NCBI GenBank assembly: GCA_963778545.1
Contig: CAVZUW010000003.1
Span: 26,365 to 90,364 of the forward strand
Direction of reading: 5' to 3'
Length of the DNA: 64,000 nucleotides
From: an uncultured Actinomycetes bacterium
GTDB lineage: Bacteria; Actinomycetota; UBA4738; HRBIN12
The notes under the pieces were generated by a model, which made no database searches, was not told the DNA's origin, and saw only the letters and a list, made by a program, of their open reading frames with translations. The translations under genes were made by a program, and so were the position numbers. This document shows positions 1-49,908 of the stretch, one piece after another. Every line of letters begins with the position of its first letter. Within the stretch, counting starts at the first letter, position 1.

Positions 1-198
1 GTAGGTGAGGAACCGCACGTTCTTCACCGTGACCGGCGCCGTCGAGACGGCGGAGGAAAGGATGGCCTCGCGGGCGGCGTCGGCGTAGATCGGCCCGGCG
101 ACCAGCACGCCGATCGTGAAGCCGAGCGTGACCACGATCGCCAGACCCAGCAGACGCTGGGCGAAGAACCGCTTCAGCAGGAACCGCAGGGTCGCCAT
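1..198 (-). CDS. ABC transporter permease (FtsX/MacB-like), N-terminal 66 codons only; the gene runs off the window edge
   Basis: Reverse translation from ATG (196-198) gives MATLRFLLKRFFAQRLLGLAIVVTLGFTIGVLVAGPIYADAAREAILSSAVSTAPVTVKNVRFLTY, a typical FtsX-family N-terminal TM helix. Absent from the ORF track because truncated. Confidence 0.5.
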   Translation of the reverse strand, partial: MATLRFLLKRFFAQRLLGLAIVVTLGFTIGVLVAGPIYADAAREAILSSAVSTAPVTVKNVRFLTY

Positions 199-323
199 GA
201 CAGCACGAACGCCGCCGAAAAGAGGCGGCGAGTCACTCGATGATACGCTGACCCGGCGGGCCCGAGATGGGCCGCGGAACCCACACCGAACGCCCCCCGA
301 AGAGCGCGACAGGAGCCTCCGAG

Positions 324-1484
324 ATGGACCGTCCCGAGATCATCCTGGCCCCCGGCCCGACCCCGATCCCGCCCGAGGTGCTGCTCGCGCAGGGGAGCCC
401 GCTCGTGTACCACCGGGGTCCGGGGTTCGGCGGCCTGATGCGGGACGTGACCGCCCGGTTGAAGGAGCTCTACCGCACCGAGAGCGCCGACGTCTTCCTG
501 ATGACCTCGTCGGGGACGGGCGGGCTCGAGTCGGCGGTCCAGAACGTGTTCTCGCCGGGGGACGAGGTGCTGGTGCCGCTCGCCGGGTTCTTCTCGGAGC
601 GCTGGAGCAAGCTCGCGGAGGCGCACGGCCTGGTCGTTCGCAAGCTCGAGTACGAGTGGGGTCGCAAGATCGTTCCCGAGGAGGTCGCGGCCGCGCTCGC
701 CGAGCATCCGGTCAAGGCCGTCCTGCTCACGCACTCCGAGACCTCGACCGGCGTGATCCAGCCGATCCGCGAGCTCGCCCGCGTCGCGAACGAGGCCGGC
801 GCGCTCGTGGTCGTGGACGTGGTCTCGAGCCTGGGAGCGGTGCCGTTCGCGTTCGACGAGTGGGGGATCGACGTCGCGGTCGGCGGCTCGCAGAAGGCGC
901 TGTCCGCGTCGCCCGGGATCGCGTTCGTCGCGATCTCGCAGCGCGCGTGGGCGATGCACCGCACCGCGACCATGCCCCGCTTCTACTTCGACTGGTCGAT
1001 CTACCGGGAGTTCGCCGAGCGCAAGGATCCCGAGAACCCGTGGACGCCGGCGATCAGCGTGATGCAGGGTCTGCACGCGGCGCTCGAGCTCTACTTCCAG
1101 GACGGCGTCGACGTCGCGCTGGAACGCCACCGAACGCTCTCGCGCGCGGTCAAGGACGGCGCGCAGGCGCTCGGGCTCGACCTGTTCGGGGAGGGCCTGG
1201 ACGACAACTGGACCGTCACCGCGATCCGCGCGCCCGAGGCCGCGGACGCCGACACGATCAGCGACCGGATGCGGTCGGACTTCGGCTGCGTGATCGCCCC
1301 GGGGCAGGGACCGCTCAAGGGGACCGTGTTCCGGATCGGGCACTTCGGGTACTTCAGCGAGCTCGACATCGTCCGGGGTCTGGCCGCGCTCGAGATGACG
1401 CTCGAGCGGCTCGGGCACCCGGTCAAGCGCGGCGCGGCCGTCGGCGCGGCCGAGGGCGTCTTCCAAGACGCGTTCGGCGCCTGA
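324..1484 (+). CDS. Class V PLP aminotransferase (phosphoserine / serine-glyoxylate aminotransferase type), directly upstream of serA
   Basis: ORF 267-1484. Internal ATG at codon 20 (MDRPEIILAPGPTPIPPEVL...) matches the N-terminus of class V aminotransferases. GGSQKAL (Lys) motif present. Adjacent to serA. Confidence 0.75.
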   Translation: MDRPEIILAPGPTPIPPEVLLAQGSPLVYHRGPGFGGLMRDVTARLKELYRTESADVFLMTSSGTGGLESAVQNVFSPGDEVLVPLAGFFSERWSKLAEAHGLVVRKLEYEWGRKIVPEEVAAALAEHPVKAVLLTHSETSTGVIQPIRELARVANEAGALVVVDVVSSLGAVPFAFDEWGIDVAVGGSQKALSASPGIAFVAISQRAWAMHRTATMPRFYFDWSIYREFAERKDPENPWTPAISVMQGLHAALELYFQDGVDVALERHRTLSRAVKDGAQALGLDLFGEGLDDNWTVTAIRAPEAADADTISDRMRSDFGCVIAPGQGPLKGTVFRIGHFGYFSELDIVRGLAALEMTLERLGHPVKRGAAVGAAEGVFQDAFGA

Positions 1485-1520
1485 CGCTGGAGCGAGCGGA
1501 GCCGTGCGGGTGGGCGGGTC

Positions 1521-3104
1521 ATGAGGGTCCTGGTCACCGAGAAGCTGTCCGACGCGGGTCTCGATCTCCTCCGTAAGGACTTCGAGGTGGATGTGCGTCC
1601 CGAACTCGCGACCGAGGGCCTCCCACGAGCCATCGCGCCGTACGACGCGCTCGTCGTTCGGTCGCAGACGCAGGTCACCTCGGACGTGATCCAGGCGGGC
1701 GACAACCTCAAGGTCGTCGCGCGCGCGGGGATCGGGCTCGACAACGTCGACGTCGACGCCGCGACGCGACGCGGCGTGATGGTGGTGAACGCGCCCTCGT
1801 CGAACATCGTCTCGGCCGCCGAGCACACGATCGCCCTGCTGCTCGCGCAGGCTCGGAACATCCCGCAGGCGCACGAGGACCTGAAGCAGGGCCACTGGGA
1901 CCGCGCGAAGTGGCAGGGCGTCGAGCTCCAGGGCAAGACGCTCGGGATCGTGGGGCTCGGGCGCGTGGGGGCGCTCGTCGCGCAGCGGAGCGTCGCGTTC
2001 GGGATGCGCGTGATCGCCTACGACCCCTACGTGCCGCGCGAGCGCGCCAAGGAGATGGGCATCGAGCTGATGCCGAGCCTCGAGGCGCTGCTCGTGCAGT
2101 CGGACTTCGTCACGATCCATCTGCCCCGCTCGCCCGAGACCGAGGGTCTGATCGGGGAGCGCGAGCTCGCGCTCGTGAAGGAGGGCGCGCGGCTGGTGAA
2201 CACCTCGCGCGGCGGGATCGTCGACGAGCAGGCGCTCGCGAAGGCGCTCGAGGAGGGCCGGGTCGCCGGCGCCGCTCTCGACGTGTTCGAGCACGAGCCG
2301 CCGCAGGACTCGCCGCTGTTCGGGTTCGAGCAGGTGGTGACGACCCCCCACCTGGGCGCCTCGACGGCCGAGGCGCAGGACAAGGCCGGGACCTCGGTGG
2401 CCGAGATGGTGCGCCTGGCGCTGAACGGCGAGTTCGTCCCGTACGCCGTGAACGTCTCGGCCGCCGCGGAGGTTCCCGAGCTCGTCCGCCCGTTCCTCCC
2501 GCTCGCCGAACGCCTCGGAGCGCTCCTCACCGGCCTCGCCGAGGGCGCGGTGAGGACCGTGCAGGCCCAGTACCTCGGCCGGATCGGCGAGGCGGACACG
2601 CGGGTGCTCACGCTCGCGGTGGTCAAGGGCGTGCTTCGGGGCGTCGTGCACGAGCCCGTGTCGTTCGTGAACGCGCCGATCATCGCGCGCGAACGCGGGA
2701 TCGCGATCAGCGAGATGCGCTCCTCGGTCTCGAGCGACTACGTGAACCTGATCTCGGTGACGGCCGAGACCGACCAGGGCGAGGTCTCGGTCGCGGGGAC
2801 GCTCGTCGGCAAGCGCAACGACCAACGCGTCATGCACGTGAACGGCTACGACATCGAGATGGCGCCGGCCACCAACATGCTGTTCTTCGAGTACGAGGAC
2901 CGTCCCGGGGTGATCGGCACGGTCGGCACGATCCTCGGCGAGCACGAGGTCAACATCGCGACGATGGACGTGGGTCGCGCGTCTCGCGGCGGAACCGCAT
3001 TGATGGGGCTCACGCTCGACAGCCCCGCGGGTCAGGACGTGATCGACGAGATCACCTCGTCGATCGGCGGCCGAGCCGCGAGGTTCATCGTCCTGCCCGA
3101 CTGA
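1521..3104 (+). CDS. serA: D-3-phosphoglycerate dehydrogenase, long form with ASB and ACT domains
   Basis: 527 aa. NAD-binding GIVGLGRVG motif, 2-hydroxyacid dehydrogenase catalytic motifs and a C-terminal ACT domain. Confidence 0.9.
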   Translation: MRVLVTEKLSDAGLDLLRKDFEVDVRPELATEGLPRAIAPYDALVVRSQTQVTSDVIQAGDNLKVVARAGIGLDNVDVDAATRRGVMVVNAPSSNIVSAAEHTIALLLAQARNIPQAHEDLKQGHWDRAKWQGVELQGKTLGIVGLGRVGALVAQRSVAFGMRVIAYDPYVPRERAKEMGIELMPSLEALLVQSDFVTIHLPRSPETEGLIGERELALVKEGARLVNTSRGGIVDEQALAKALEEGRVAGAALDVFEHEPPQDSPLFGFEQVVTTPHLGASTAEAQDKAGTSVAEMVRLALNGEFVPYAVNVSAAAEVPELVRPFLPLAERLGALLTGLAEGAVRTVQAQYLGRIGEADTRVLTLAVVKGVLRGVVHEPVSFVNAPIIARERGIAISEMRSSVSSDYVNLISVTAETDQGEVSVAGTLVGKRNDQRVMHVNGYDIEMAPATNMLFFEYEDRPGVIGTVGTILGEHEVNIATMDVGRASRGGTALMGLTLDSPAGQDVIDEITSSIGGRAARFIVLPD

Positions 3105-3343
3105 CCGCGGAACGTTCGCGTTCGGCGTCCTTCGCTTGTGACGTTCGTCACACCTGCTTCCTTCGCACGGGCTCCGCTGTTACACTCCGTCGATCATGAG
3201 GCGACTCCAGGTGTCGTTCGGGAGCAGGAAGACGGGTCTCATCCCGTTCTTCATCGCGGCCGTCTAGCGGTCGCAACCCCCGCCTCTCCGGCGGGACCCC
3301 GAACCACCGTCCCTCGATCCAACCGAGCAACAGGAGTCGTCCG

Positions 3344-4617: not shown

Positions 4618-5832
4618 GTGGACACTCAGCCGGTGACCGCCCCCCGATCCGCCGTTCGAAGGCTGGCGACCGCCCGGTTGATCTCGATCACGGGCGGGGC
4701 CGCGGCCTACGCGGCGCTGAACTTCACGATCTTCGAGAAGACCGGTTCGGCCTCGTGGGTCGCGCTGTCGCTGCTGCTCACCTTCGGCGTCCTGGGGTTC
4801 ATCGGGCCGCCGGCAGGCATCCTCGGCGACCGCTTCGACCGGCGGAAGGTCATGATCGCCTCGGAGCTGGCCGGAGCGGTGTGCTTCGGGATGATGGCGC
4901 TCTCGTCCGAGCCATCCTGGCTCCTGACGTGGGCGTTCCTGTCCGCGGTCGCGGAGGCGCCGTTCTTCTCGGCCTCCGAGGCGGCGATCCCCAACGTCGC
5001 CGGCCCCGAGCTCACGACGTGGGCGAACAGCCTCGTCAGCGCGAGCCGGCTCTCCGGGATCGCGGTCGGCCCGGCGCTCGGCGGGGCGCTGCTCGCGGTG
5101 TCGAACAACCCCGACCTCGTGTTCGGCGTGAACGCGGTGTCGTTCGTCCTGTCCGCGTTGATCATCATGAGCGTCCGCGCTCGATTCTCGGGGGAGCGAG
5201 GCGACGAGGAGTTCGGCGGGCTGCGGGCCGGCTTCCGGTTCCTTCGCCACGACCGCGTCCTGCGAACCCTGCTCTTCGCGTGGGTCGTGTTCATCTCCGG
5301 GATGGGGATGTCGATGGTCGCGGACGCCCCGTTGGCCGCGGTGTTCGACGCCGGGTCGTTCGGGTTCGGACTGCTGATCACCGCGTGGGGAGGCGGCTCG
5401 GCGATCGGGTCCCTGATCGCCAAGCGCATGCGGGAGGGGAGCGAGGGGACCTGGCTCGTGCGCGCGGGGATCGTGATCGCGGCGACCGGCATCGGCATCG
5501 GCATCTCGCCGTGGTTCGGCCTGGCCCTGGGGCTGATGTTCGTCATGGGCCTGGCGGACGGGACGACGATCGTCGCCGAGACCAACCTTCGGCAGCGACG
5601 GGCGCCCGACGCCGTTCGCAGCCGGGTCTCGGCCGCCTTCATGGGCGTGATGCACGTGATGCTTGCGTTCTCCTACGTCGTCGCTGCGTTCGTGGTCCCG
5701 TGGCTCGGGCCGAAGCCCACCTACCTGATCGGCGGCACGACGGCCGGGCTGGCGGTGATCGTGCTGATGCGGATGCGGCGGTACCTCGAGCTCGATGAGG
5801 CCGCGCGGCTCGAGGGTTCCGAGGCGACATGA
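4618..5832 (+). CDS. MFS transporter (paralogue 2)
   Basis: GTG start after a GGAGG RBS, 18 nt past the paralogue-1 stop. N-terminus VDTQPVTAPRSAVRRLATARLISITGGAAAYAALNF parallels paralogue 1. GDRFDRRKVM motif. Confidence 0.75.
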   Translation: MDTQPVTAPRSAVRRLATARLISITGGAAAYAALNFTIFEKTGSASWVALSLLLTFGVLGFIGPPAGILGDRFDRRKVMIASELAGAVCFGMMALSSEPSWLLTWAFLSAVAEAPFFSASEAAIPNVAGPELTTWANSLVSASRLSGIAVGPALGGALLAVSNNPDLVFGVNAVSFVLSALIIMSVRARFSGERGDEEFGGLRAGFRFLRHDRVLRTLLFAWVVFISGMGMSMVADAPLAAVFDAGSFGFGLLITAWGGGSAIGSLIAKRMREGSEGTWLVRAGIVIAATGIGIGISPWFGLALGLMFVMGLADGTTIVAETNLRQRRAPDAVRSRVSAAFMGVMHVMLAFSYVVAAFVVPWLGPKPTYLIGGTTAGLAVIVLMRMRRYLELDEAARLEGSEAT

Positions 5833-35876: not shown

Positions 35877-38597
35877 CTAGCCACCGGGTGCCTGGTCGAC
35901 CCGGACGTGATCCAGGTTCATCGTGAAGGTCTTGGAAGCGTTGTCACCGATCTGGACCCATCCGATCGGGGTGGTGCCCGTGTTCGCGGACCAGGCGTTC
36001 ACGATGCGGACGCCGTCCCGGTACAGGTCCCAGGTCGTGGCCGACCCGACCGTGCCGCACAGCTCCACGGAGTGCCACCCCGAGCCGAGCGCCACGCCGG
36101 AGTTGAGCTGGACGCCCGAGACGTCCGAGCGCAGGGTCAGCGTGTTGGTGGAAGAGACGAAGGCCTTGATGATGGGCCCGTTCGACGCCGTGCGGAGTCG
36201 GAACAGGTCGACGTTGTTGCCCGATGCCAGGTTGACGCTCGCACTCAGGCAGGCCTGCGGGTAGGTCTGCGCGAGCGTCTTGTTCGCGAACGCGCTCTGG
36301 TTGACCACCTGAGCCCGCGCCGAGGGTGCCGACGGGCTTCCGGCGCCCGCATCGATCGTGAGCCGGGTCGTCGAGCTCCAGCCGGCGAGGTTGGCGAAAT
36401 CATCGGCGAAGATCGCTCCGGCCGCCGAGGACACGGTGATCGGCGCTGACTCGGGGCTGGAAACGCTCGCGTTGTTCATCGCGTCGACCGCATCGACCGC
36501 GTAGGTATGCATCGAGCCGGCCGCCAACCCCGTGTCGGTGAACGACGTGGCGGTCGTGGAGCCGATGGAGGACCCACCACCATCGCGGTAGACGCGGTAG
36601 GTGATCGGCGGCGAGTCGTCCGTGGAGCCGGCCCAGGCGATCTGGATCGTGCCTGCGGAGGGACTCGTTCCGGTGGGCGTCCCCGGGACGGTCGGAGGCA
36701 CGAAATCCGGCGTGCTGCTCTCGCCGGGTGCCTGGTCGACCCGGACGTGATCCAGGTTCATCGTGAAGGTCTTGGAAGCGTTGTCACCGATCTGGACCCA
36801 TCCGATCGGGGTGGTGCCCGTGTTCGCGGACCAGGCGTTCACGATGCGGACGCCGTCCCGGTACAGGTCCCAGGTCGTGGCCGACCCGACCGTGCCGCAC
36901 AGCTCCACGGAGTGCCACCCCGAGCCGAGCGCCACGCCGGAGTTGAGCTGGACGCCCGAGACGTCCGAGCGCAGGGTCAGCGTGTTGGTGGAAGAGACGA
37001 AGGCCTTGATGATGGGCCCGTTCGACGCCGTGCGGAGTCGGAACAGGTCGACGTTGTTGCCCGATGCCAGGTTGACGCTCGCACTCAGGCAGGCCTGCGG
37101 GTAGGTCTGCGCGAGCGTCTTGTTCGCGAACGCGCTCTGGTTGACCACCTGAGCCCGCGCCGAGGGTGCCGACGGGCTTCCGGCGCCCGCATCGATCGTG
37201 AGCCGGGTCGTCGAGCTCCAGCCGGCGAGGTTGGCGAAATCATCGGCGAAGATCGCTCCGGCCGCCGAGGACACGGTGATCGGCGCGGACGCAGGACTCG
37301 GTGGCCCCGTGTTCACCTCGTCGCTCGCGACGACCACGTAGGTGTGCGTGCTCGCGGCCGCGAGCCCCGTGTCGGTGAAGGACACGTTCGGGCCGGCACT
37401 CACGACGCTCCCCACCGGTGCCGGACCGCCGTCGCGATAGACGCGATAGGTGAGAGTCGCGTCGTCGGGGTCGGTCGCCGCCGACCAGGTAAGGGCGATC
37501 GCCCCCGGAGCGCCCGCTGCGCCGCTCGGCTGTCCGGGCGCCGTGGGCGGAGTGGTGTCATCGGGCGGCGAGGCCACAGCGGTGAAGTACGGGTCGGCCC
37601 CCATCGCGGTGAAGGCCGTCAATGAGGAGGCGCTGGAGTCGATCAGGAAGTTGCACCCGGGGTTCGCCCAATCGACGGTGTTGAAGTAGAGCGCGGCGCG
37701 GAACGATTCCCATCCGGGTGACTTGAGCAGGGCCCGGGCGTCGTTGAACCACTGCGCCTTGCGGCCGGGCACCGATGGATCCTCCACGGTGCCGAACTCG
37801 GGAAGCATCAGAGGGATCGTGGGATGGTTCTGACCGAACAACCGGAGAGGGTTCACGATATCGAAGAACGATTTCCAGGGACCGTTCGGGAAGCCTGCCT
37901 TGCAGTTATGCCAGTTGTACGCGTCTGCTCCGATCGCGTCGACGTACCCATCGCCCGGATACCAGTTCGCCGCGGCGTGCTCGCCTGTGATCCAGAAGGC
38001 TTCATCCGTGAGCGTCCAGACGAACTGCGCATTGACCGTCCCTTCGGCCTCGAAGACGTTCCACACCCGCCGCCAGGCATCGATGTAGTCGGTGCTCGTC
38101 CCGAGATCGTCGTTCCGCATCATCTCCGGTTCGGGTGAGAACAAGAAGTAGAGCGGCGCGCCGTAGTCGCGGATACGTCGCGCCCAGCTCACGAGGTCGT
38201 TGTAGACGGGTGATCCCACTGGTGCGTCGGCGATGGTCCTCCACAGCACGGGCGTGCCGTTCCCGTATCGGGTGGCTAGCGAGAGGAAGAGCGTGTGGTT
38301 CGTATCGCGCATCCACAGATCCAATGGCGTGGGGAATGCCGAGTCCCAACGGTCGAACTCCCGTATGGCCGCCAGCGGACGACCGATGTCCGCCTCGATG
38401 TTCCCGATCTCCTGCTGCGTGACGGGCACGGGATGGGCGCCGAGGATGATGGTCGGGAGCGCGGGGTCGGCGGACGCGGGCAACGGAGCGCCGACCACCC
38501 CTGACGCACATGCCACGGCCACAAGGAGCACGAACACCACGGGCGCGAAGAGGCCGGTGGGCTCGCCTCGACGTCGCCGCTGAGGTGTGAGCGTCAT
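35877..38597 (-). CDS. Secreted multidomain glycoside hydrolase, GH26-like (mannanase family) catalytic domain + [FN3 + ~185-aa jelly-roll/ConA-like module] x2
   Basis: 906 aa from ATG 38597 (MTLTPQRRRRGEPTGLFAPVVFVLLVAVACASG is a signal peptide). GH26-like region WRRVWNVF...WTLTDE...WYPGDGYVDAIGADAYNW...EFG. Two FN3-like segments and a duplicated C-terminal module. Confidence 0.8.
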   Translation of the reverse strand: MTLTPQRRRRGEPTGLFAPVVFVLLVAVACASGVVGAPLPASADPALPTIILGAHPVPVTQQEIGNIEADIGRPLAAIREFDRWDSAFPTPLDLWMRDTNHTLFLSLATRYGNGTPVLWRTIADAPVGSPVYNDLVSWARRIRDYGAPLYFLFSPEPEMMRNDDLGTSTDYIDAWRRVWNVFEAEGTVNAQFVWTLTDEAFWITGEHAAANWYPGDGYVDAIGADAYNWHNCKAGFPNGPWKSFFDIVNPLRLFGQNHPTIPLMLPEFGTVEDPSVPGRKAQWFNDARALLKSPGWESFRAALYFNTVDWANPGCNFLIDSSASSLTAFTAMGADPYFTAVASPPDDTTPPTAPGQPSGAAGAPGAIALTWSAATDPDDATLTYRVYRDGGPAPVGSVVSAGPNVSFTDTGLAAASTHTYVVVASDEVNTGPPSPASAPITVSSAAGAIFADDFANLAGWSSTTRLTIDAGAGSPSAPSARAQVVNQSAFANKTLAQTYPQACLSASVNLASGNNVDLFRLRTASNGPIIKAFVSSTNTLTLRSDVSGVQLNSGVALGSGWHSVELCGTVGSATTWDLYRDGVRIVNAWSANTGTTPIGWVQIGDNASKTFTMNLDHVRVDQAPGESSTPDFVPPTVPGTPTGTSPSAGTIQIAWAGSTDDSPPITYRVYRDGGGSSIGSTTATSFTDTGLAAGSMHTYAVDAVDAMNNASVSSPESAPITVSSAAGAIFADDFANLAGWSSTTRLTIDAGAGSPSAPSARAQVVNQSAFANKTLAQTYPQACLSASVNLASGNNVDLFRLRTASNGPIIKAFVSSTNTLTLRSDVSGVQLNSGVALGSGWHSVELCGTVGSATTWDLYRDGVRIVNAWSANTGTTPIGWVQIGDNASKTFTMNLDHVRVDQAPGG
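35881..36437. repeat. Copy 1 of a 557-bp perfect direct repeat (part of an 840-bp tandem duplication inside the GH26 gene)
   Basis: 35881-36437 is identical to 36721-37277 (period 840 bp). The identical 113-aa and 180-aa antisense ORFs in the track arise from this. Confidence 0.85.
36721..37277. repeat. Copy 2 of the 557-bp perfect direct repeat
   Basis: See copy 1. The flanking ~280 bp (FN3 segments) have diverged. Confidence 0.85.
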
Positions 38598-38797
38598 CCG
38601 ATGGGGCGGTCGACCCCCGGTGAGGGACTCGACCGACGGCGCATCGTAGACGGGGGTGGGGCCGAGGCGCAATCCTTCATCCGGATGAAGATCCTCGTCG
38701 GGATCATGCGGCCTAGAGGGATTGCTTCCGGGGTGCCACGCGTGAGTGGCGAGGCAATGAGGCGACGCCGCCCGTAGACGTCGATCTGCGTTCCCTG

Positions 38798-38841
38798 GTG
38801 CGCCGGGGAGGACTCGAACCTCCGACCCGCTGCTTAGAAGG
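38798..38841. repeat. 44-bp direct repeat identical to the 3' part of tRNA-Arg(TCT) (49833-49876); candidate attR of an integrated element
   Basis: GTGCGCCGGGGAGGACTCGAACCTCCGACCCGCTGCTTAGAAGG occurs at both positions. It covers the acceptor 3' strand, T-arm, variable loop and the 3' anticodon stem/loop. Confidence 0.75.
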
Positions 38842-38999
38842 TATGCGGGAGCGGAACGACGTGCGAACATGCCTGGACGCACCGTATCGAGCGAGCGGAA
38901 TGCGCTTAGTTAGCGGGTCGGGTCACGGTGCATTGGGCTGTCCGAGCCGCCGCGTACGGTACCTGTGCTTCCCCCCGACTACGTCCGAGCGAGGTGGTC

Positions 39000-39242: not shown

Positions 39243-39302
39243 GGCGCAGCGAAATCGTGGCCGGAGGCCTAATTCCCCATCAGCGGGAGTAGGCTCCTAG
39301 CC

Positions 39303-39668
39303 GTGGACCATGCCCCCATTCCTCCAGAGCAGTACCGGGCGGGTGTACCACTTCTCTTTCTCGAACTGTTGGCGAAGTCCCCGCGCAACGGCGGAGAGGA
39401 AGCGGTGCAGAAGTACTACGAACTTCGTGATGCGAGAATGATGACACTGGCGAAAGGGACCGCCGCGGCGGCGGTCTCCATCTTGACTGCTTGGTTCATA
39501 CCCTTCCTCAAGAATGAGTACGAGGACGCCCCGGAGTGGTTGATCTTGTGGCCCCCTCTTGCGTTGCTCGTCGTATTGGTGATTGCAGGGGGACTGGCTT
39601 TCATCAACCTAAACAGGATTCACAAATCGCTCATCCGAGCGATGTCTCTCTTGGAGCTCTACCGATGA
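39303..39668 (+). CDS. Hypothetical 2-TM membrane protein in a lower-GC segment
   Basis: 121 aa with two C-terminal TM helices (AAAAVSILTAWFIPFL; LILWPPLALLVVLVIAGGLAFI). AT-richer codons (aaa, ttt, att) are atypical for this genome. Confidence 0.55.
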   Translation: MDHAPIPPEQYRAGVPLLFLELLAKSPRNGGEEAVQKYYELRDARMMTLAKGTAAAAVSILTAWFIPFLKNEYEDAPEWLILWPPLALLVVLVIAGGLAFINLNRIHKSLIRAMSLLELYR

Positions 39669-40177
39669 GGATCGTCGCCGGATCCACAGCGTTTCTTACT
39701 GCCTTGTCCCTTCTAGCTACTGGACTCGCCGTGGCCCTTGCTTTGGTGTGGATCATTCAGCAATCGCGAATGAAATCGGCCAGGGAGAGGGTGGCGGAGT
39801 CCCCGGTCTGGGATCAAGTCGTAGGGTTCTGGACCGAGTCTAAGACGCAGTCAGAGGGCGCCTTTATCAGTCAAGTCCAAGAAAGAATCTCGACGCTTGG
39901 GCAGATATCCGTCAGGTTCGGACGGGTTCTCGACGGGGAGGAGGTCGCCTCTCGGCTTCGCGAGGCGCTCCCGGACGCGAGACAGTTGGAGCAACGACTT
40001 CGCAAGGAACTAGAGAAACAGGGCAGGGTCGTTGGTGCAATCAGTCACTTCCCGATAGAGACGTTGGATGGGAATCAGGAGGCGCTGCTCGTGAGCTACC
40101 TCAGAGAGTGGAAAACGCTAAGGGATCTGGAGGATCGCCTAAGCCGAGAGATATCCCGCCTCTCATTCGCTCTCTGA
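39665..40177 (+). CDS. Hypothetical membrane-anchored coiled-coil protein (N-terminal TM helix)
   Basis: ATGA overlap with the previous gene. MRIVAGSTAFLTALSLLATGLAVALALVWII TM helix, then a charged helical region (RLREALPDARQLEQRLRKELEKQ). Confidence 0.55.
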   Translation: MRIVAGSTAFLTALSLLATGLAVALALVWIIQQSRMKSARERVAESPVWDQVVGFWTESKTQSEGAFISQVQERISTLGQISVRFGRVLDGEEVASRLREALPDARQLEQRLRKELEKQGRVVGAISHFPIETLDGNQEALLVSYLREWKTLRDLEDRLSREISRLSFAL

Positions 40178-40245
40178 CTCGCCGGGGATCACGTCCTCGG
40201 TTGGACGCTTGGGTCCCCCCGCGCCCCGTGCCGAATTCCTCCACG

Positions 40246-40390
40246 TCCCTCATGCTCCCCCGACTTCGAACGAGCCGACAGGATCGGCGAGTTCTGGAGT
40301 TACCGCAGAGCCGCACCTTCGCCGAGTTACTGATCGACTGCGAAAAGAGGATCAGGTGCTGCGAGCGGTGCTGGTCGGAATGTTGCGAGA
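40246..40390. repeat. Copy 1 of a ~145-bp imperfect direct repeat in a 770-bp non-coding stretch
   Basis: Roughly 85% identical to 40643-40790. Shared core ...GGATCGGCGAGTTCTGGAG.TACC..CAGAGCCGCACCTTCGCCGAG...TGATCGACTGCGA... Confidence 0.5.
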
Positions 40391-40642
40391 GGGCCAGCGC
40401 TGGGGTCCCTCCTAGGAACACCCAACCGGCGAGAGTACGTCGATTGAGCGATGCGCACCCTCCTCGGCGTTCCTACGATTCTGATGCGGTTCAGGGACAC
40501 CGGGCTTGCTGTGGTCGGGCCACCGCAAGGGCCTCCCCTCAGGACCATCGAACGGGTCCGCTCGGTGTCCCTGACCGACCACAAGATCACCGAGCCATCG
40601 GGCTTCCCCGCCCCGGTCGGAAGCGAGGGACGGGGCCGGTGT

Positions 40643-40790
40643 TCTCAATGCTCCCCGACTTCGAAACGCCCCACCGGATCGGCGAGTTCTGGAGCTACCC
40701 ACAGAGCCGCACCTTCGCCGAGCTGTTGATCGACTGCGAGGAGGATCGGACGCTCCGTGCGGTGTTGGTCGGATGCTCCGGGAGACTCAG
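40643..40790. repeat. Copy 2 of the ~145-bp imperfect direct repeat
   Basis: See copy 1. The indels between copies do not preserve a reading frame, which argues against protein coding. Confidence 0.5.
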
Positions 40791-40945
40791 CAGGGGCGCT
40801 AGGTGCGGTCGGGAACCGCCCCGCACGGCGAGCAGTCGGAGAAGTTCGCATTCTGTAGGGATTCTGGGGAGTAGACCTTCGGCGGGGCGGCTCCCCAACT
40901 CGTCCGACTGTGTGGCCGGCTTCCAGATGCCACGATTCGCGGGTT

Positions 40946-41287
40946 ATGGCGATCATCGAGATGATCGGAAGGCCCGACTCACGCCCATACGTCGTGGTTC
41001 GGGGACGGTTGACCGACGAAGACGAGGGACGCCTGCTCGCACGTGTCCTGACTTCGCGCCATGTCGATGTCGTGGTCGATCTATGTGAGATCGACGAGGT
41101 GACGGACGAGGGTTGCACCGCGATCAAGAACGTGGCCGAGCACATGGATAAGGATCAGACGATGGTGGTGGTGTACGTCCCCGACCGGGAGGCGACTCGA
41201 CCCCTCGAGCGATCCGGGATTACGGATGATGGCCGGATCGTGCTCGTCGCAGCCTCGCCGTCTCGTCGTATCAGTCTCGAGGTCTGA
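40946..41287 (+). CDS. STAS-domain protein (anti-sigma-factor antagonist-like)
   Basis: 113 aa from ATG 40946. Beta-alpha pattern MAIIEMIGRPDSRPYVVVRGRL...VVVDLCEIDEVTDEGCTAI typical of SpoIIAA/STAS. Confidence 0.6.
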   Translation: MAIIEMIGRPDSRPYVVVRGRLTDEDEGRLLARVLTSRHVDVVVDLCEIDEVTDEGCTAIKNVAEHMDKDQTMVVVYVPDREATRPLERSGITDDGRIVLVAASPSRRISLEV

Positions 41288-41471: not shown

Positions 41472-41723
41472 GTGGCCTCCATGGGTCGCCGCGAGCACGA
41501 CATCTACGAGCATGCCGTCGGCGCGGTGATCGCGCAGGCCGCTGAGGAGAAGCGCGACATCTACGAGCACGCCGTCCTCGCGGTGATCGCGCAGGCCGCC
41601 AGGGAGACCGAGAGGGCCGGCGGGGAGCGCGAGCCTCGTCCGGGCGGAGGAATGAGGGGCATCTGGATCGGGCTCGCCCTATCTCTCCCTATCTGGGGCG
41701 TGATCATCTGGTGGCTGTCATGA
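41472..41723 (+). CDS. Small membrane protein with an internal 20-aa tandem repeat
   Basis: 83 aa. DIYEHAVGAVIAQAAEEKR / DIYEHAVLAVIAQAARETER (60-bp tandem duplication in the DNA). C-terminal TM helix IWIGLALSLPIWGVIIWWL. Confidence 0.45.
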   Translation: MASMGRREHDIYEHAVGAVIAQAAEEKRDIYEHAVLAVIAQAARETERAGGEREPRPGGGMRGIWIGLALSLPIWGVIIWWLS

Positions 41724-43399: not shown

Positions 43400-44742
43400 G
43401 CGATCGGTGCGCCCTGGGCAACGTCCAGGTCCGGGCGCGGTCCAGACGGTCCCGGCGATCAACCCAGGTTGGCGACGTGCCGCCGCAGCACGCGATCACC
43501 GTCGTGTGACAGGCGCTGCTCGAGGACGGCGTCGAAGAACTGCTGACCACTGCAACGCGAGGCGCTGCGGGCTCCTGGGGACCTTGGTGATCGGCAGGCC
43601 TTCCTCGGCGAGCATCCAGCAGCACCCACGACCAGTCGTGCCTCCGAACACAGGAACTCGTGGACGTTGTAGCGGGCCCAGACGGCCCGGAGCTCGTCGG
43701 CGACGTCGGAGGGATCGACGCGCTCGGCCTCCTCCCAGACCTGATCGGGAAGACGTGCGGCTCGTCGAGCGTGCAGCCGACGATCGCGACGGTGTCGCGA
43801 GCGCGAGCGGCGACGAACGCGACGACGACCTTGGTTCCCTCGGGGATGGCGCGGGCGACCGGCGGCGGCCTCCCACACCCCGTCTGCGAACGCGACGTCG
43901 CGCCCGGTCGTCCATTGGTTCAGGTGCAGCCGTCTGAACTGGTTCTCCGGGAGACGCCGAGCCATATCGACGAGGCGGGCCTGGACCAGGAACGGGTCCG
44001 GCACACGAAGGGCGGGGTTCGCGAGCCGCCACGTCCTCGGCGAGCGGTAGTCGGCCTCGGAGTCTTGGGGAAGACCGACCCACCGATACAGGAACCGCGG
44101 GTCCTTGCCCTCCTCGCCCTCGCGGACGAGATCACCCAGCAGCGAGCCGCGGTCGTAGCCGGCGGTGCGAGATCCCGAGCAGCAGCGGCTCGGTCCGCGC
44201 GCCGAACCCGGACTCGAGGACGTCCCACAACTCGCGCGACGGCTGGACGTGGACCTCGTCGAAGATGACGGCGCTCGGGCGCAGGCCGTGCTTGAGCGGC
44301 GCGTCGGCGCTCATCACCCGCCAGACCAGTCGGTGCCGGGGTCCTCGATCGCGTCGCGGAAGATCCGAAGCGTCGCCGACAGCCGCGGGGAGAACTCGAC
44401 CATCCGCTTGCCGGCGTCGAAGACGATGCGCGCCTGCGGCTTGTCGCCGGCGACCGAGATCACCTCGGCGCCGTAGGTCCCATCGGCGACGAGCATCTTG
44501 GTCCCGACCGCGGCCGCGATCTCCGACTTGCCGTTCTTCCGCGGCAGGCCCCACAGCGCGCGGGTGTAGCACGCGGTGGCCTGCGTGACCTCCCGGAACA
44601 ACTCGGTCAGGAAGTCGCGCTGGAACGCGCGGAGCTTGAACGGCCGGCCCGCCCACCGGTCGGAGGTGTGCCGGAGCTCGCCCTCGATGAAGCGGACCGG
44701 ATCGACGCGGACGAGGCCCCGAGCGCGAGCGCGCTCGGCCAT
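43400..44742 (-). CDS. Terminase large subunit, interrupted by at least two frameshifts. 3' end approximate
   Basis: Walker A GLPRKNGKS in ORF 44314-44742. ...AVIFDEVHVQPSRELWDVLESGFGARTEPLLLGIS in ORF 44132-44656. Nuclease region PENQFRRLHLNQWTTGRDVAFADGVWEAA, ELRAVWARYNVHEF and FFDAVLEQRLSHDGDRVLRRHVANLG in ORFs 43459-44083. Confidence 0.7.
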
Positions 44743-44859
44743 CAGCGTCGCCTTCCGATACTTCTCGGCGAGCTCCTGCTGGAGCGACTTACCTCGGAGC
44801 TGCGACAGGCCGATATGCGTCAGAGCGCGACGGGCTCCCGCCGAACTCGACCGCCAGAC

Positions 44860-45210
44860 GAGCCACCAGGGCGACGGCCTGGCGACCAGGCTCGGAAGGC
44901 CGGGTTCAGGATCGCCCCCCGGCTGCCGGTGACGCAGAGCTCCCCTTCCTCGAGCTCTGCGCGGCGCGCTCGGCCATGCCGACGGCGACGGCGAACTGAC
45001 GGAGCAGCGGCAGGTGGATCGACTGGAGCGCCCCGGCCTCGGCCAGCGGCTCGGCGACCTGGGTCCAGGCCTCCTGCTCGACCGGGCCGAGGTCCGCCGG
45101 CGGCTCCGGGACGGCCTCCAGCGGGGCGAAGCGGATCGGCTGGGGCAGGGCGCGCTTGCCGGGGTTGCCTCGGCGCTTGGCGATCTCGACGGGGACGGGT
45201 CTACGGGGCA
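44860..45210 (-). CDS. Terminase small subunit, P27 family, C-terminal part frameshifted. Coordinates approximate
   Basis: MPRRPVPVEIAKRRGNPGKRALPQPIRFAPLEAVPEPPADLGPVEQEAWTQVAEPLAEAGALQSIHLPLLRQFAVAVGMAERA matches the P27 small terminase family. The C-terminus continues in another frame (...GAILNPAFRAWSPGRRPGG...). Confidence 0.55.
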
Positions 45211-45212
45211 TC

Positions 45213-45475
45213 GACGTCCTCCCAGTCCGGGCCACCTTCCCAGCCAGGACCGCCGGCCAGGAAGCGACGCAGGACCTCGCGGATCTCCTCTGCTCGCGCC
45301 GGGGGGGCCACATCACGGCCTGCATGTAGAGCTGGTCGTCTGGCGTTAGGGCGGTGGAGAGCATGAACACGCCGGTGAGCTCGTCGCCGGGGCGGGTCAG
45401 GACCTTCCGGGCGATCTCGGCGACCTCGTTCAGCGCCTCATCGCTCGGAAGCGTCACCTTCGGTCGGTTCTTCAC
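45213..45475 (-). CDS. Hypothetical small phage protein with a frameshift in a C7/G7 run at 45302-45308
   Basis: VKNRPKVTLPSDEALNEVAEIARKVLTRPGDELTGVFMLSTALTPDDQLYMQAV, then after a 1-nt shift ...PPARAEEIREVLRRFLAGGPGWEGGPDWEDVDAP*. Confidence 0.35.
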
Positions 45476-45610
45476 GTCATCCTCTCCTTCTGGGCCGTTC
45501 TGGGGCGTTCTGGGGCCTGGTACAAGCCCTGGTACAAGCCGGCGGGAAGTGCGGCGGCGCACACCGGCCAAGATGTGGCGGTACTAGCAGCGCGGCTCAA
45601 AGAATCGGTC

Positions 45611-45957
45611 TTCATCGCCGACCTCGCTTCCGCTTCTTCCCGATCTCCGAGTCGCGGTGGTTCTTCTCGTTCGCGTGCATCGCGCACAACGACTGAAGGT
45701 TCTCCTCGTTGTCGTCCTCCACCGAACGCCTTGGCCTGGATGTGGTCGACCGTGGTCGCGACCGCGCCACAGACTCGACAGCCGGGCTCGAGCCGGAGGT
45801 GGGCGGCCCGGATCTTGGGCCAACGTGAGCCGTAGTCCCGCCCTGCGGTGACCCACCCTCCGCCTCGACGGGTGTGGTCGGGGCACCTGCCGCCGTACCT
45901 GGTGCGGTTGGGGCAGCCTGGCTCGGCGCACTGAACGGGCAGCAGGTTCAGGCTCAT
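45611..45957 (-). CDS. HNH endonuclease with a +1 frameshift at the GGTGGAGGA run (~45715-45725)
   Basis: MSLNLLPVQCAEPGCPNRTRYGGRCPDHTRRGGGW...CRVCGAVATTVDHIQAKAFGG, then the shifted frame gives EDDNEENLQSLCAMHANEKNHRDSEIGKKRKRGRR*, completing the HNH motif (DH...N...LC..CHN.K). Confidence 0.7.
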
Positions 45958-46119
45958 GCCGTCCCGCCGTTCAGCACGTGCTCGACCACGATCGCGGTCC
46001 ACGTAGCACGGCCAGGTGGAGGCTCCACGCCGAGGGTGTTCAGCTCGAACGCGGCGGCCGTCTTCGGGCTGCCTGCGCCGGCGTGTGCAACCAGGGTCTC
46101 GCGGACGGTCCGGGCGATC

Positions 46120-48172
46120 TCACCCAGGGGATACAGTGCCGAAGACCCTGGCCCATCCTGGCCCACCGCCTCTGACCTGCGGGAATCGCTCTGAGCCACC
46201 CTGGCCCGGATCCTGGCCCAGCGTGGCCTGGGCCGGGATGGGCCGGGGTCCGTCCAACTGTTCTTCCAGGAGATCGTCATCGTCGGGGTCGGCTGGGCCT
46301 CGGAGGCCGATGCCCTCGATGTATCGGTCTCGGATCTCGCTCGCAGGGGTCCGGTGCCGAACCTCACGCAGGCCGGGGTAGGCGGCGTGCAAGTCTCGGA
46401 ACAGCACCGCCTTGGTGCCGGCGCGGTCCTTGCCCTCGTCCTGGCACCAGTCCTTCCACGCCGTCCAGAGCTCGTCCTTGCGAACCTCATGGACCGGCAC
46501 CGACGACGCAACGGTCCCGTACGAACGCGGAGACCGGGGAAGCGAGATCCTGGAGGCGCTGGAGGGCGGCCTCGGGACGACTGCGGGCATCTCGAAGTAG
46601 CCGCGAGCGTTCAGGCGATCCAGACCGTCGAGGGACCAGTTGAAGATGCCGGGTGCCTCGGCCAGCAAGGCATCGGTGAGCCCTGGGTCCTCCTGTCCGA
46701 AGAAGCTGTTCGTGAGCACCAGGACGATGAACCGGGACGCGAGGGCGCCGGATGCGTCGGTGAACCTGGGGACCTCGTTCGTCAGGACCATGAACCGCGT
46801 CGGGAGTCTGCCCGTCCAGGGGTCGCGGTACTTCCGGTCGATCGTCAGCGAGTCCTCGCCGGAGATCGACAGCAGCCGCTCGACCGCGACCGTCCCGTCC
46901 GCCCGCGTTGATAGGCGTGCATCGGAGATCAGCCCGAGCGGTCTTCCGATGAGCGGGGACAGGCCGAAGTTGGTCGTGAGCCCCGCGAGGGTCGGCGCGG
47001 CGACGTTGTGGGCGCCCAGCAGACCGGTCAGGACGCGACCGATCGTGCCCTTGCCCGAGCGGAGCGGCCCGACGAGCATGAAGATCTTCTGCAGGTCCGT
47101 GCCGCCTCCCAGGATGTAGCCCATCACCTCGGCCAGCGCGTCACGGGACTGCTCGTCCTCGGGCCACAACTCCTCGAGGAACCGGAGCCACCGGGCCGGG
47201 CGTCGGCGCCGTGCGGTCGTACTCGAACGGCAGGACATGCGGGGCGAAGTACGCGGGGGTGTGCGGGATCAGCTTGCGCGTCGAGATGGTCAGCAGCCCG
47301 TTCGCGAGTGGCACAACCTGACCCTGGTCCTCCCCCACGATCCACGCCGGCGTGGTGATGTGCATGTCCAGGTGGGTGTTGGCCCGGATGGCGTCGATGA
47401 GGTCGGCGATCTTGTAGCGGGTCGGCTCGAAGTCGACGAGCTCCACGTCGTCCTTGACCTTCTTCCAGTACTTGGCGCCGTCCAGCCACCGGTACAGGTC
47501 GCTCTCGAGACGGCGTTCGTCGAACTCGGGCCACGAGGTGCCGTCGTAGCGGTGGAACGTGTTGCGGTGATGGCGGACGAGCGACTCGACGACGTCATCG
47601 GGGTAGTGGTGCTCCAGGAACATCTTCCCGACGGCGTAGGGGTTCGACGGCGCGGGGACGGTCAGCGTCTCGACCGGCGCCAGCTTGGGCAGGTCCCGCG
47701 TGAACTCGTCGTGGAGGTCTTCGGCCGTCGGGTCCGTCACGCCGGCCTCCTCAGGTCGTGGCCGAGCTCGCGCCAGCGGTCCAGGTCGGTCGTCGAAGGC
47801 AGAGGGCGTCGGCATTCCGGGGCAGCGATCGTGGCCGCGACGCAGGAGCCGGCGGTTCGCGTCGATAACGTCACGCGGTACGCGCTGGTCGCCCTCGAAC
47901 AGGTGGCGGCAGCCCCGCCAGATCGCGGTCTCGAGGAACGCCGCGTTCTCCGAGCGGCGAGTTCGGGCCATCATCTCGAGCAGCGCCTTGCACTTCGCTT
48001 CGACGGTCAGCTCGGGATCGTCGGCGACGAGACGGGCGGCGGTCTCCCAGCGCCTGATCTCGGCGAGGACTCGTTCGGTCGCTTCGTCGGTGTAGGATTC
48101 GGGCTGGCGGTACGTCTTGGTAGTGGCGTTGGCCCCGGAGCCCTCCGGGGCCGTTCGCTGTCCAGGGTTCAT
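46120..48172 (-). CDS. Phage/plasmid primase, P4/D5 family (primase C-terminal domain plus D5-type NTPase), frameshift in 47141-47238
   Basis: ORF 47141-48172 (...NGLLTISTRKLIPHTPAYFAPHVLPFEYDRTAPTP) and ORF 46120-47238 (RWLRFLEELWPEDEQSRDALAEVMGYILGGGTDLQKIFMLVGPLRSGKGT...) together make the TIGR01613-like domain and a Walker A motif. Confidence 0.8.
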
Positions 48173-48559: not shown

Positions 48560-48797
48560 CCGGTGTCCGCCGACGGAAGTGGACGGCCACGCTACCGTCG
48601 CGTTGTGCCGTCTCGAACTCGGTCTTCTCGATCGCCACCACACCGTGCTTCGGACACATCGACACGACGGAGTACTCGCCCTCCAGCACGATGTCGGCCG
48701 CGCTTCGGACGCCGACCCACCGCTCCCATGTTCCGGGTCTCAGGCGCCGGCCACAGATCTTCCCGCGACCGTCAGAGATGCCACACAGCAGCTTCAC
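48560..48797 (-). CDS. Putative small Cys-rich (zinc-finger-like) protein, translationally coupled to the integrase. 3' end uncertain
   Basis: GTG at 48797 overlaps the integrase stop (GTGA). VKLLCGISDGRGKICGRRLRPGTWERWVGVRSAADIVLEGEYSVVSMCPKHGVVAIEKTEFETAQRDGSVAVHF. Downstream the frame degenerates to Arg/Pro-rich junk. Confidence 0.3.
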
Positions 48798-49738
48798 AGC
48801 CGATCCCCCGGCGCGGTCCGTCGATGGGCGTCGTCGAGAGCGCGTTCGGCGGCGACGCACGAGCCGTAGCGCGACAGCATCGAGCGGCTGCGCCAACCGG
48901 CGAGGGCCATCAGGTTCTCGCCCTCGACGCCGTCGGCCATCCTGTCGTGGGCGAAGGTGTGGCGGAACCGGTGCAGGTTGATGCGCTCGTCGATCCCGGC
49001 GTCCCTGGCCCGCTTGCGGACGATCTGGGCGATGCCGTTGTCGGTGAGCGGTCCCGCGAGACCGAGCCACAGGTTCGGCAAGTGCGCAGCGCGGTGTCCG
49101 GCGCGGGCGCGCAGGTAGCGGTCGAGCGCCTGGGCGCACTTGTGGCCGAAGGCGACGGTGCGGATGCGCCGACCCTTGCCGGTCACGGTGGCCTGTCGGA
49201 GCCGGAGGTCGATGTCGTCCGTGGACAGGTTCGTCAGCTCGGCACGCCGGCAGCCGGTGTCCACGAACATGCGGATGATCGCCAGGTCTCGCCGGTCGGC
49301 GAAGGCCGTCCCCGAACACGCCTTGATGAGCGCGGCGAGCTGGTCGTCGGCGATCACCGGGACGGGCTGCTCGGGGACGATCGGCGGGTGCATGTTCACC
49401 ATCGGGGAGACGCTGATCTCGCCGTCGGAGACGGCCCACCGGAAGAACTGTTGGAGCCCCCGATAGCGGATGTGCACCGAGGTCGGACTCACGCGCTTGA
49501 GCTCGGCGGCAACGAACGCCTCGACGTGTTCCCGCGTGATCGCGTCCACGCGGGTCGGCATACCGGAGCGCTCGAGGAACGCGGCGAACAACTCGACGGC
49601 GTCTAAGTAGGTGCTCGTTGTACGGGGCGACAGGTTGCGCGCCGCGAGCGCGATCTCGAACGACTGCGCGAGCCGACGGACGTCACCGAGGTCGGATGCG
49701 TCACGCCGGCGTGACGCCTTGGCGGTCCTGGTCCCCAT
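48794..49738 (-). CDS. Tyrosine-type site-specific integrase/recombinase
   Basis: 314 aa. N-terminal SAM-like domain. C-terminal catalytic motifs R...(HRFRHTFAHD)...RY with ...LSRYG. Located 95 nt from the tRNA-Arg 3' end. Confidence 0.9.
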   Translation of the reverse strand: MGTRTAKASRRRDASDLGDVRRLAQSFEIALAARNLSPRTTSTYLDAVELFAAFLERSGMPTRVDAITREHVEAFVAAELKRVSPTSVHIRYRGLQQFFRWAVSDGEISVSPMVNMHPPIVPEQPVPVIADDQLAALIKACSGTAFADRRDLAIIRMFVDTGCRRAELTNLSTDDIDLRLRQATVTGKGRRIRTVAFGHKCAQALDRYLRARAGHRAAHLPNLWLGLAGPLTDNGIAQIVRKRARDAGIDERINLHRFRHTFAHDRMADGVEGENLMALAGWRSRSMLSRYGSCVAAERALDDAHRRTAPGDRL

Positions 49739-49833
49739 ATCCTCCTGCCTGTCCAGTTAGCGGCTCACTATGCGGTGTGCATGAGGTGAGCGTCAATCGA
49801 GGGAGGCTGGATATGACCTCTGACCTGGGGTTG

Positions 49834-49908
49834 TGCGCCGGGGAGGACTCGAACCTCCGACCCGCTGCTTAGAAGGCAGCCGCTCTGTCCAGACTGAGCT
49901 ACCGGCGC
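49834..49908 (-). tRNA. tRNA-Arg (anticodon TCT)
   Basis: 75-nt cloverleaf read on the minus strand: GCGCCGG-TA-GCTC/AGTCTGGACA/GAGC-G-GCTGC/CTTCTAA/GCAGC-GGGTC-GGAGG/TTCGAGT/CCTCC-CCGGCGC-A. Confidence 0.9.

Follow-up and report, generated by a model that had tools for sequence, protein, structure and literature searches.

A rare pair of coupled membrane-protein genes carried as cargo of a tRNA-integrated element

In the RexA/RexB system of phage lambda, which mediates prophage exclusion, one partner senses infection and the membrane partner collapses the membrane potential; RexB has four transmembrane (TM) helices and RexA is soluble. PspB and PspC constitute an envelope-stress sensor pair of small, co-translated inner-membrane proteins with cytoplasmic helical parts, and the Spd genes of actinomycete integrative and conjugative elements (AICEs) are small, hydrophobic and translationally coupled. 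Here, we describe a two-gene cassette from an uncultured actinomycete, found in a 64-kb stretch of contig CAVZUW010000003.1 that was analysed as a whole (the window), and refer to its upstream and downstream genes as P1 and P2. The pair is a rare, conserved and tightly coupled two-gene unit that comprises two unnamed protein families. We tentatively read it as a self-contained, mobile membrane conflict module, in which a putative effector with two TM helices (2TM) and a tethered sensor or regulator would act in abortive infection or exclusion, and we hold this reading to be possible, at somewhat less than an even chance. The SLATT proteins offer a further point of comparison, as predicted pore-forming effectors of conflict systems that have 2-3 TM helices and are highly mobile (PMC9226505). 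SLATT-RT is described as joined to a partner gene by tight stop/start coupling (bioRxiv 10.64898/2026.04.29.721553).

The cassette consists of the following features, read from open reading frames (ORFs), their translations and the sequence itself.

39303-39668, plus strand: P1, GTG start and TGA stop, 121 amino acids, two TM helices (ORF and translation)
39665-40177, plus strand: P2, ATG start and TGA stop, 170 amino acids, N-terminal TM anchor and helical cytoplasmic domain (ORF and translation)
39665-39668, plus strand: ATGA, the stop/start overlap of the P1 TGA and the P2 ATG (direct reading)

The ATGA overlap implies that translation of the two genes is coupled. An earlier note on this DNA had described two ATGA-coupled genes encoding a 121-amino-acid protein with two TM helices and a 170-amino-acid protein with one N-terminal TM helix, and both the ORFs and the hydropathy profiles bear this out. 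It had also remarked on an AT-richer codon usage, which the composition of the cassette reflects. At 57.1%, the GC content of 39303-40177 is the lowest among all 875-bp segments of the 64 kb (mean 70.0%, standard deviation 2.6), compared with 67.8% for the island that carries it and 70.5% for the flanks. GC at third codon positions (GC3) reaches 0.70 in P1 and 0.66 in P2, against 0.85-0.96 in neighbouring genes. The cassette has a GC content of 53-60% at each related locus regardless of the flank, the greatest contrast being found in the window genome, and this uniformity across differing flanks is consistent with horizontal movement. The possibility that P1 and P2 are not real genes was ruled out by their conservation and by nonsynonymous divergence (dN) far below synonymous divergence (dS). 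An antisense ORF (39416-39607), which also occurs in homologues, is regarded as a by-product of P1 conservation.

Predicted topology and comparison with described systems

Hydropathy places the two TM segments of P1 at about residues 50-69 and 79-102. The first is borderline in the single sequence and clear in the family-mean profile, where the peaks of 22 P1-family members fall at about residues 52-68 and 80-98. Across these 22 members the tails are net basic and the loop between the TM segments is net acidic, and the topology is predicted to be N-in/C-in throughout the family. The N-terminal region of about 50 residues is conserved, helical and predicted to be cytoplasmic, and carries the motif SPRNGGE-x-V-x-x-YY-x-x-R-x-x-R-x5-AKG. 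In the family alignment, the helix directly before TM1 conserves G-E/D-x-V-x-x-Y-Y/E-W/L-R-x-x-R-x5-AKG. The outer loop is short and acidic (LKNEY...), with LK-x-E conserved at the outer end of TM1; within the close group, TM2 contains a conserved PP (kink). A basic, amphipathic C-terminal helix with a conserved R-I-H-x-S-Y/L completes the protein.

P2 possesses a single N-terminal TM segment at about residues 8-31, preceded by a short uncharged N-tail and followed by a basic juxtamembrane stretch and an all-helical domain. Among eight P2-family proteins, 0-1 basic residues precede the TM segment and 1-6 follow it (at least four in 5 of the 8). Since the basic residues lie mostly after the TM segment, the helical domain is predicted to be cytoplasmic (N-out/C-in). 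Hence, both proteins appear as membrane-anchored, with soluble parts predicted to reside in the cytoplasm. An alignment of the eight partners shows conservation of the motif hP(I/V)(E/D)xL near residues 128-134. The AlphaFold2 (AF2) model of P2 contains five helices separated by turns (predicted local distance difference test, pLDDT, 81; predicted template-modelling score, pTM, 0.64), which suggests a compact helical bundle rather than a single long coiled coil. Of the long charged coiled coil previously proposed for P2, the helical character stands, and the single coiled coil now appears less likely.

In architecture, there is a likeness to the SLATT and 2TM effectors (Pfam SLATT_1-6 and DUF4231; they serve as effectors or accessories of cyclic-oligonucleotide-based anti-phage signalling systems, CBASS, and of DRT10/UG17 and RADAR), small proteins in which cytoplasmic helices flank a TM hairpin. 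With its two predicted TM helices and the cytoplasmic helices beside them, P1 falls within the SLATT pattern (two to three TM helices), and the modular N-terminal fusions that exist in its family count as a further likeness. Unlike in SLATT systems, the partner of P1 is a membrane-anchored helical protein with no Pfam or PDB match instead of an enzymatic sensor; no SMODS/CD-NTase, SLOG, TIR or reverse transcriptase (RT) partner was found in the inspected loci. The window P1 gave no match to SLATT even at E<=10. Two of the 22 family members match SLATT_1 below threshold (E 0.011-0.021, 15-16 bits against a cut-off of 26.3), one member matches SLATT_3 at E 0.27, and three PADLOC models of the CBASS '2TM effector' each match one member (E 0.0066-0.51). 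These are the sole thematically recurrent weak matches and provide a hint, not evidence. No match reached the gathering score of Pfam SLATT_1-6 or DUF4231; membership of these families is not supported by the model searches, and the SLATT/DUF4231-type module suggested in the earlier note is not upheld. Scans of 22 P1-family and 8 P2-family members also produced single-member matches to DUF4383 (1.5e-4) and Rv2743c (1.7e-3), which were treated as noise, and yielded no assignment for the P2 family.

The other described systems share parts of this design. Like RexA/RexB, the pair is a two-gene module on an integrated element, with proposed roles of sensor and membrane partner that are putative. 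It differs from RexAB in that both proteins are small and membrane-anchored, and no sequence or fold similarity to that system was found. P1 and P2 resemble PspB/PspC in being small, coupled and membrane-anchored with cytoplasmic helical parts; they differ in that no homology was found, in having no pspA/pspF-like neighbours, and in being rare, patchy and mobile in location. A class II holin with its antiholin is likewise similar, given that a small 2TM N-in/C-in protein whose C-tail is basic stands beside another membrane protein, a possible regulator, at a prophage-derived location. Unlike class II holins, P1 carries a long conserved cytoplasmic N-terminal region, matches no holin family and has no lysin nearby.

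Pairing, distribution and sequence evolution

A word-indexed search of 5.8 billion proteins returned four relatives of P1 at 51-80% identity, whereas the P2 query recovered only P2 itself. On the contigs of the four P1 relatives, the next gene on the same strand encodes a protein of 157-180 amino acids that is 30-34% identical to P2; the P2 homologues in loci L001 and L005 show 30-34% identity. When 1.84 billion representatives were searched exhaustively with HMMER and a P1 profile, only 26 clusters matched at E<=1e-3, and a metagenome scan contributed four further loci. No relatives were found by tblastn in 50,697 phage genomes or 72,556 plasmids, nor in 185,579 GTDB species-representative genomes (one per species). 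None appeared in IMG/VR viral contigs as far as pattern scans reach, the distant family members being too divergent in the alignment for such scans.

Wherever a locus examined was complete enough, a P2-like gene comes directly after the P1 homologue on the same strand, so that the co-occurrence that the earlier note had proposed to check holds throughout. The paired loci are L001-L005, L009, L010, L012, L014, L016 and L018, together with the P0023 contig, where only a 168-amino-acid downstream gene call was seen. The partners consistently display a short N-tail, a TM segment and a helical domain, even where P1 is only 26-31% identical. Stop and start overlap at 8 of 11 junctions (ATGA, or GTGA/TGATG), and the remaining three have a gap of 3-7 nt. 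Four family members fuse an N-terminal domain of 130-180 amino acids, belonging to no known family, to the P1 module and keep the P2-like partner.

Comparison of the closest loci reveals a marked difference in rate between the two genes. Synonymous sites are saturated (pS, the proportion of synonymous differences, 0.69-0.85), and dN amounts to 0.14-0.32 for P1 and 0.74-0.92 for P2. At the protein level, these locus pairs are 45-78% identical in P1 and 21-36% identical in P2. P1 is under strong purifying selection, and P2 evolves several-fold (four to six times) faster, yet P2 keeps its architecture and the hP(I/V)(E/D)xL motif. A conserved P1 with a fast-evolving P2 is the pattern expected of a conserved effector with a fast-evolving sensor.

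The tightness of the unit, with its stop/start overlap, also agrees with a membrane toxin-antitoxin or addiction module, in which P1 would be constitutively toxic and P2 a membrane-bound antidote, the two stabilising the mobile DNA that carries them. The association with mobile DNA (the island and transposases) and a remnant locus, L007, with a truncated P1 and no P2, would fit such a module. The order of the genes does not, as a toxin gene placed first and an antidote larger than the toxin are atypical of classical type II systems, and P1 and P2 showed neither a DNA-binding or autoregulatory domain nor a match to a toxin-antitoxin family. Addiction overlaps largely with the conflict-module reading, from which it is inseparable in silico, and on balance we regard it as rather improbable. 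An apparent truncated P2 in L015, a possible argument against an antitoxin role, was dropped because it coincides with a run of N in a scaffold gap.

The host element and genomic contexts

The cassette resides in an insertion of about 11 kb bounded by 44-bp repeats, whose main features are listed below.

38798-38841, no strand assigned: left attachment-site (att) repeat, a displaced copy of the 3' part of tRNA-Arg, forming an exact 44-bp direct repeat with 49833-49876
49833-49908, minus strand: tRNA-Arg(TCT), found by ARAGORN; its 3' 44 nt (49833-49876) are the right attachment-site repeat
48794-49738, minus strand: tyrosine integrase adjoining the tRNA (PHROG phrog_1, E 4.4e-39)
46120-48172, minus strand: primase-helicase split into two overlapping ORFs (Pfam D5_N at 47141-48172, 7.8e-08; DUF5906 at 46120-47238, 1.1e-13)

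The overlapping primase-helicase frames suggest decay, and judged from its sequence the integrative element derives from a phage or is satellite-like, and has decayed. The P1 start lies 460 bp inward of the left end, and the gene is read towards the interior of the element. The integrase-distal position stated in the earlier note is borne out by the att repeats and by the location of the integrase at the tRNA end. The same note had taken the pair for cargo of the element, and the cassette is indeed accessory cargo of a tRNA-integrated element, outside the integration and replication machinery. It combines atypical, foreign composition with a position inside att-bounded DNA, and the pair occurs elsewhere without the island's other genes, as in cargo of the 'moron' type.

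In the window, the replication and packaging genes at 43459-48172 (minus strand) look decayed, and sub-threshold remnants of a TerL-ATPase (44314-44742) and an HNH protein (45612-45770) were detected. The phage-derived character of the element, seen in its integrase, its primase-helicase and these weak TerL and HNH fragments, would fit a holin/antiholin-like lysis-timing pair left from a prophage lysis cassette. P1 also resembles a class II holin in its two TM segments, its predicted N-in/C-in orientation and its basic C-terminal tail, and its partner has an N-terminal TM. The pair, however, occupies the att-proximal cargo end, away from the remains of structural and packaging genes, and no endolysin was found in the island or adjacent to the pair at any related locus. 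Holins do not typically have a strongly conserved cytoplasmic N-terminal region of 50 residues such as that of P1; there was no PHROG match, and no relative was found in the 50,697 phage genomes or the IMG/VR pattern scans. The holin-like character proposed in the earlier note is weakened accordingly, and a lysis-timing origin seems very unlikely.

Integration at a tRNA gene in high-GC actinobacterial-like DNA, together with small coupled membrane-protein genes, brings to mind the small membrane proteins of actinomycete integrative elements that serve in spread or entry exclusion (Spd-like). Nothing in the island could be recognised as a transfer gene of the FtsK/TraB kind, and elsewhere the pair is present without any element genes. 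Of the explanations considered, we give this one hardly any weight.

A candidate promoter element lies just upstream of P1.

39290-39295, plus strand: TAGGCT, candidate -10 hexamer (TANNNT), 7 nt upstream of the P1 GTG

Each of the 4 closest loci (the window, L001, L005 and L009) carries a TANNNT hexamer 6-7 nt ahead of the P1 start codon. Its rate in these sequences is 0.07-0.3% of positions, and the chance of such an occurrence is about 0.001-0.006 per locus. A sigma-70 consensus scan upstream of P1 returned nothing. Leaderless transcripts are common in actinobacteria, and the candidate hexamer would give a leaderless P1 mRNA. As the cassette reads inward and the chromosomal gene past the att site lies on the opposite strand, the cassette would have to supply its own promoter, and the pair apparently has a candidate for one.

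The DNA that follows P2 contains a repeated sequence.

40190-40394 and 40649-40785, plus strand: two decayed copies of a repeat of about 140-240 nt, or of a 51-amino-acid gene, 3' of P2

Besides the window, this repeat follows P2 only in the closest relatives, L001, L002 and L004; confined in this way, it is an associated feature and no core part of the pair. Copies elsewhere lie at 5580-5777 (plus strand) and 3014-3188 (minus strand) in L001 and at 1328-1525 in L002. The repeat is 80-87% identical between the window and L001, compared with only 72% at the DNA level for the adjacent P1 gene. L001 and L002 alone have an intact ORF of 51 amino acids (MLPDFERADRIGEFWSYPESRTFVELLIDCEEDWTLRAVLVGMLRKSDRPY), and the three remaining copies carry frameshifts. 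The repeat had no match in Rfam, Pfam, NCBIfam, PADLOC or plasmids. A structured RNA was considered and rejected, since Rfam gave no match, covariation was negligible and the fold z-score was +0.68. The codon positions vary in an ambiguous pattern (14/7/15), and these copies may represent either a small-gene family in decay or a repeat at the DNA level.

Additional orphan sequences were noted in and around the island. Between the downstream repeats and the remaining cargo, a 125-amino-acid ORF (40910-41287, plus strand) has a moderately low GC3 of 0.73 and no Pfam or PADLOC match. ORF 41472-41723 (plus strand), another orphan cargo gene, contains a 57-bp tandem repeat in two copies that are 88% identical (41494-41607). 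The repeat encodes a doubled 19-amino-acid segment, R-x-HDIYEHAV-x-AVIAQAA, in an 83-amino-acid protein with a hydrophobic C-terminal stretch. The minus-strand ORF at 35877-38882 includes a tandem duplication with an 840-bp period (35884-37023), in which at least 300 nt are 100% identical (35884-36183 and 36724-37023). Its 1001-amino-acid translation holds a module of about 280 amino acids twice in identical form. The duplication is either a very recent event or an assembly artefact.

At other loci, only the pair and, in the closest relatives, the short repeat after P2 are homologous to the window. Neighbourhoods vary, often with transposases or with defence genes or their remnants; neither a core-genome context nor homology to housekeeping membrane proteins, either of which the earlier note had named as refuting its reading, was found. 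In L005, a gene at 2-2689 (plus strand) lies 149 bp upstream of the pair on the same strand and encodes a SIR2_2 (ThsA-like), nSTAND NTPase 5 and TPR protein of more than 895 amino acids. In that lineage this gene could work together with the pair or be a defence gene in its own right, and it is not conserved at other loci. The neighbours in L001 are an N-terminal fragment of a type I methyltransferase (PADLOC 4e-22) and a DUF5677 fragment. An rve_3 transposase is a neighbour of the pair in L017, and Mutator-family transposases are neighbours in L008 and L018. L018 also harbors a fused variant, a P1-domain protein of 294 amino acids, in a run of four overlapping genes (103-2305, plus strand), with an upstream 223-amino-acid multi-TM protein that ends in a C-terminal DUF2510 motif and a downstream P2-like protein of 217 amino acids.

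Possible function and significance

In the proposed conflict module, P1 would be the effector, whose 2TM hairpin would oligomerise and perturb or depolarise the membrane. P2 would act as a membrane-tethered cytoplasmic sensor or regulator that keeps P1 inactive. A trigger, for example, a product of a phage or of other invading DNA, would release P1, and the outcome would be abortive infection or exclusion, protecting both the host and the resident element. An abortive-infection role had already been put forward in the earlier note and stays conjectural; only the conserved pairing, the rate asymmetry and the context have strengthened it.

Several observations weigh against such a role. Neither P1 nor P2 had a usable match in Pfam, PADLOC, PHROGs or NCBIfam, as the earlier failure to name a family had foreshadowed, and neither matched PADLOC-DB v2 even at E<=10. 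The SLATT and 2TM matches within the P1 family are no better than those to the unrelated TM families Acyl_transf_3, DUF2231 and Chromate_transp. Profile searches of PDB sequences with P1 and P2 gave nothing below E 0.1. Foldseek comparisons of both models with PDB, and of the P2 model with BFVD as well, returned generic helical bundles and no match at E<0.1, and the AF2 model of P1 is itself a helical hairpin of low confidence (pLDDT 65). The fast evolution of P2 could merely reflect low constraint on its helical domain. Moreover, related contigs are mostly 1-6 kb, too short for defence-island enrichment to be quantified, and neighbours such as tyrosinase, DoxX, DUF2252, DUF6519 and beta-propeller proteins are not conflict-related.

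The same absence of a defence-family signal, along with these metabolic or unknown neighbours, would be expected if P1 and P2 were an ordinary accessory membrane pair that is mobile by chance and has a physiological role, whether envelope-stress sensing or signalling like that of PspB/PspC or membrane organisation. Strong purifying selection on P1 and the four-gene overlapping operon of L018 with its DUF2510 multi-TM protein are also in keeping with this explanation. On the other hand, the family is very rare and patchy (26 clusters among 1.84 billion representatives, and 0 of 185,579 species-representative genomes), and the cassette has a foreign composition and lies at the edge of an integrated element. 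Synteny is not conserved past the pair, and no PspA-like or regulator gene is adjacent at any locus. A physiological role deserves serious consideration, though we think it unlikely.

If the conflict-module reading is extended to its full consequence, P1 and P2 would be founding members of an undescribed, self-sufficient two-protein membrane immunity system. In such a system, direct gating of the strongly conserved 2TM effector would fall to a fast-evolving tethered helical sensor, and neither an enzyme nor a nucleotide signal would take part. The pair would be independent of SLATT or only a very distant relative, and would be spreading as a leaderless coupled mini-operon among soil bacteria, on prophage remnants and beside insertion sequence (IS) elements. 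This extended proposal is doubtful as it stands.

The pair is one of many uncharacterised cargo gene pairs, and its immediate significance is modest, its function being putative. If membrane exclusion or abortive infection were its true role, poorly sampled high-GC soil bacteria would have yielded a minimal system that lacks any enzymatic domain. With its roughly 290 residues in all, the pair would then also serve as a compact model for the silencing and triggering of small TM hairpins. Even with no function assigned, two unnamed families, with their obligatory pairing and topology defined, can now be annotated.

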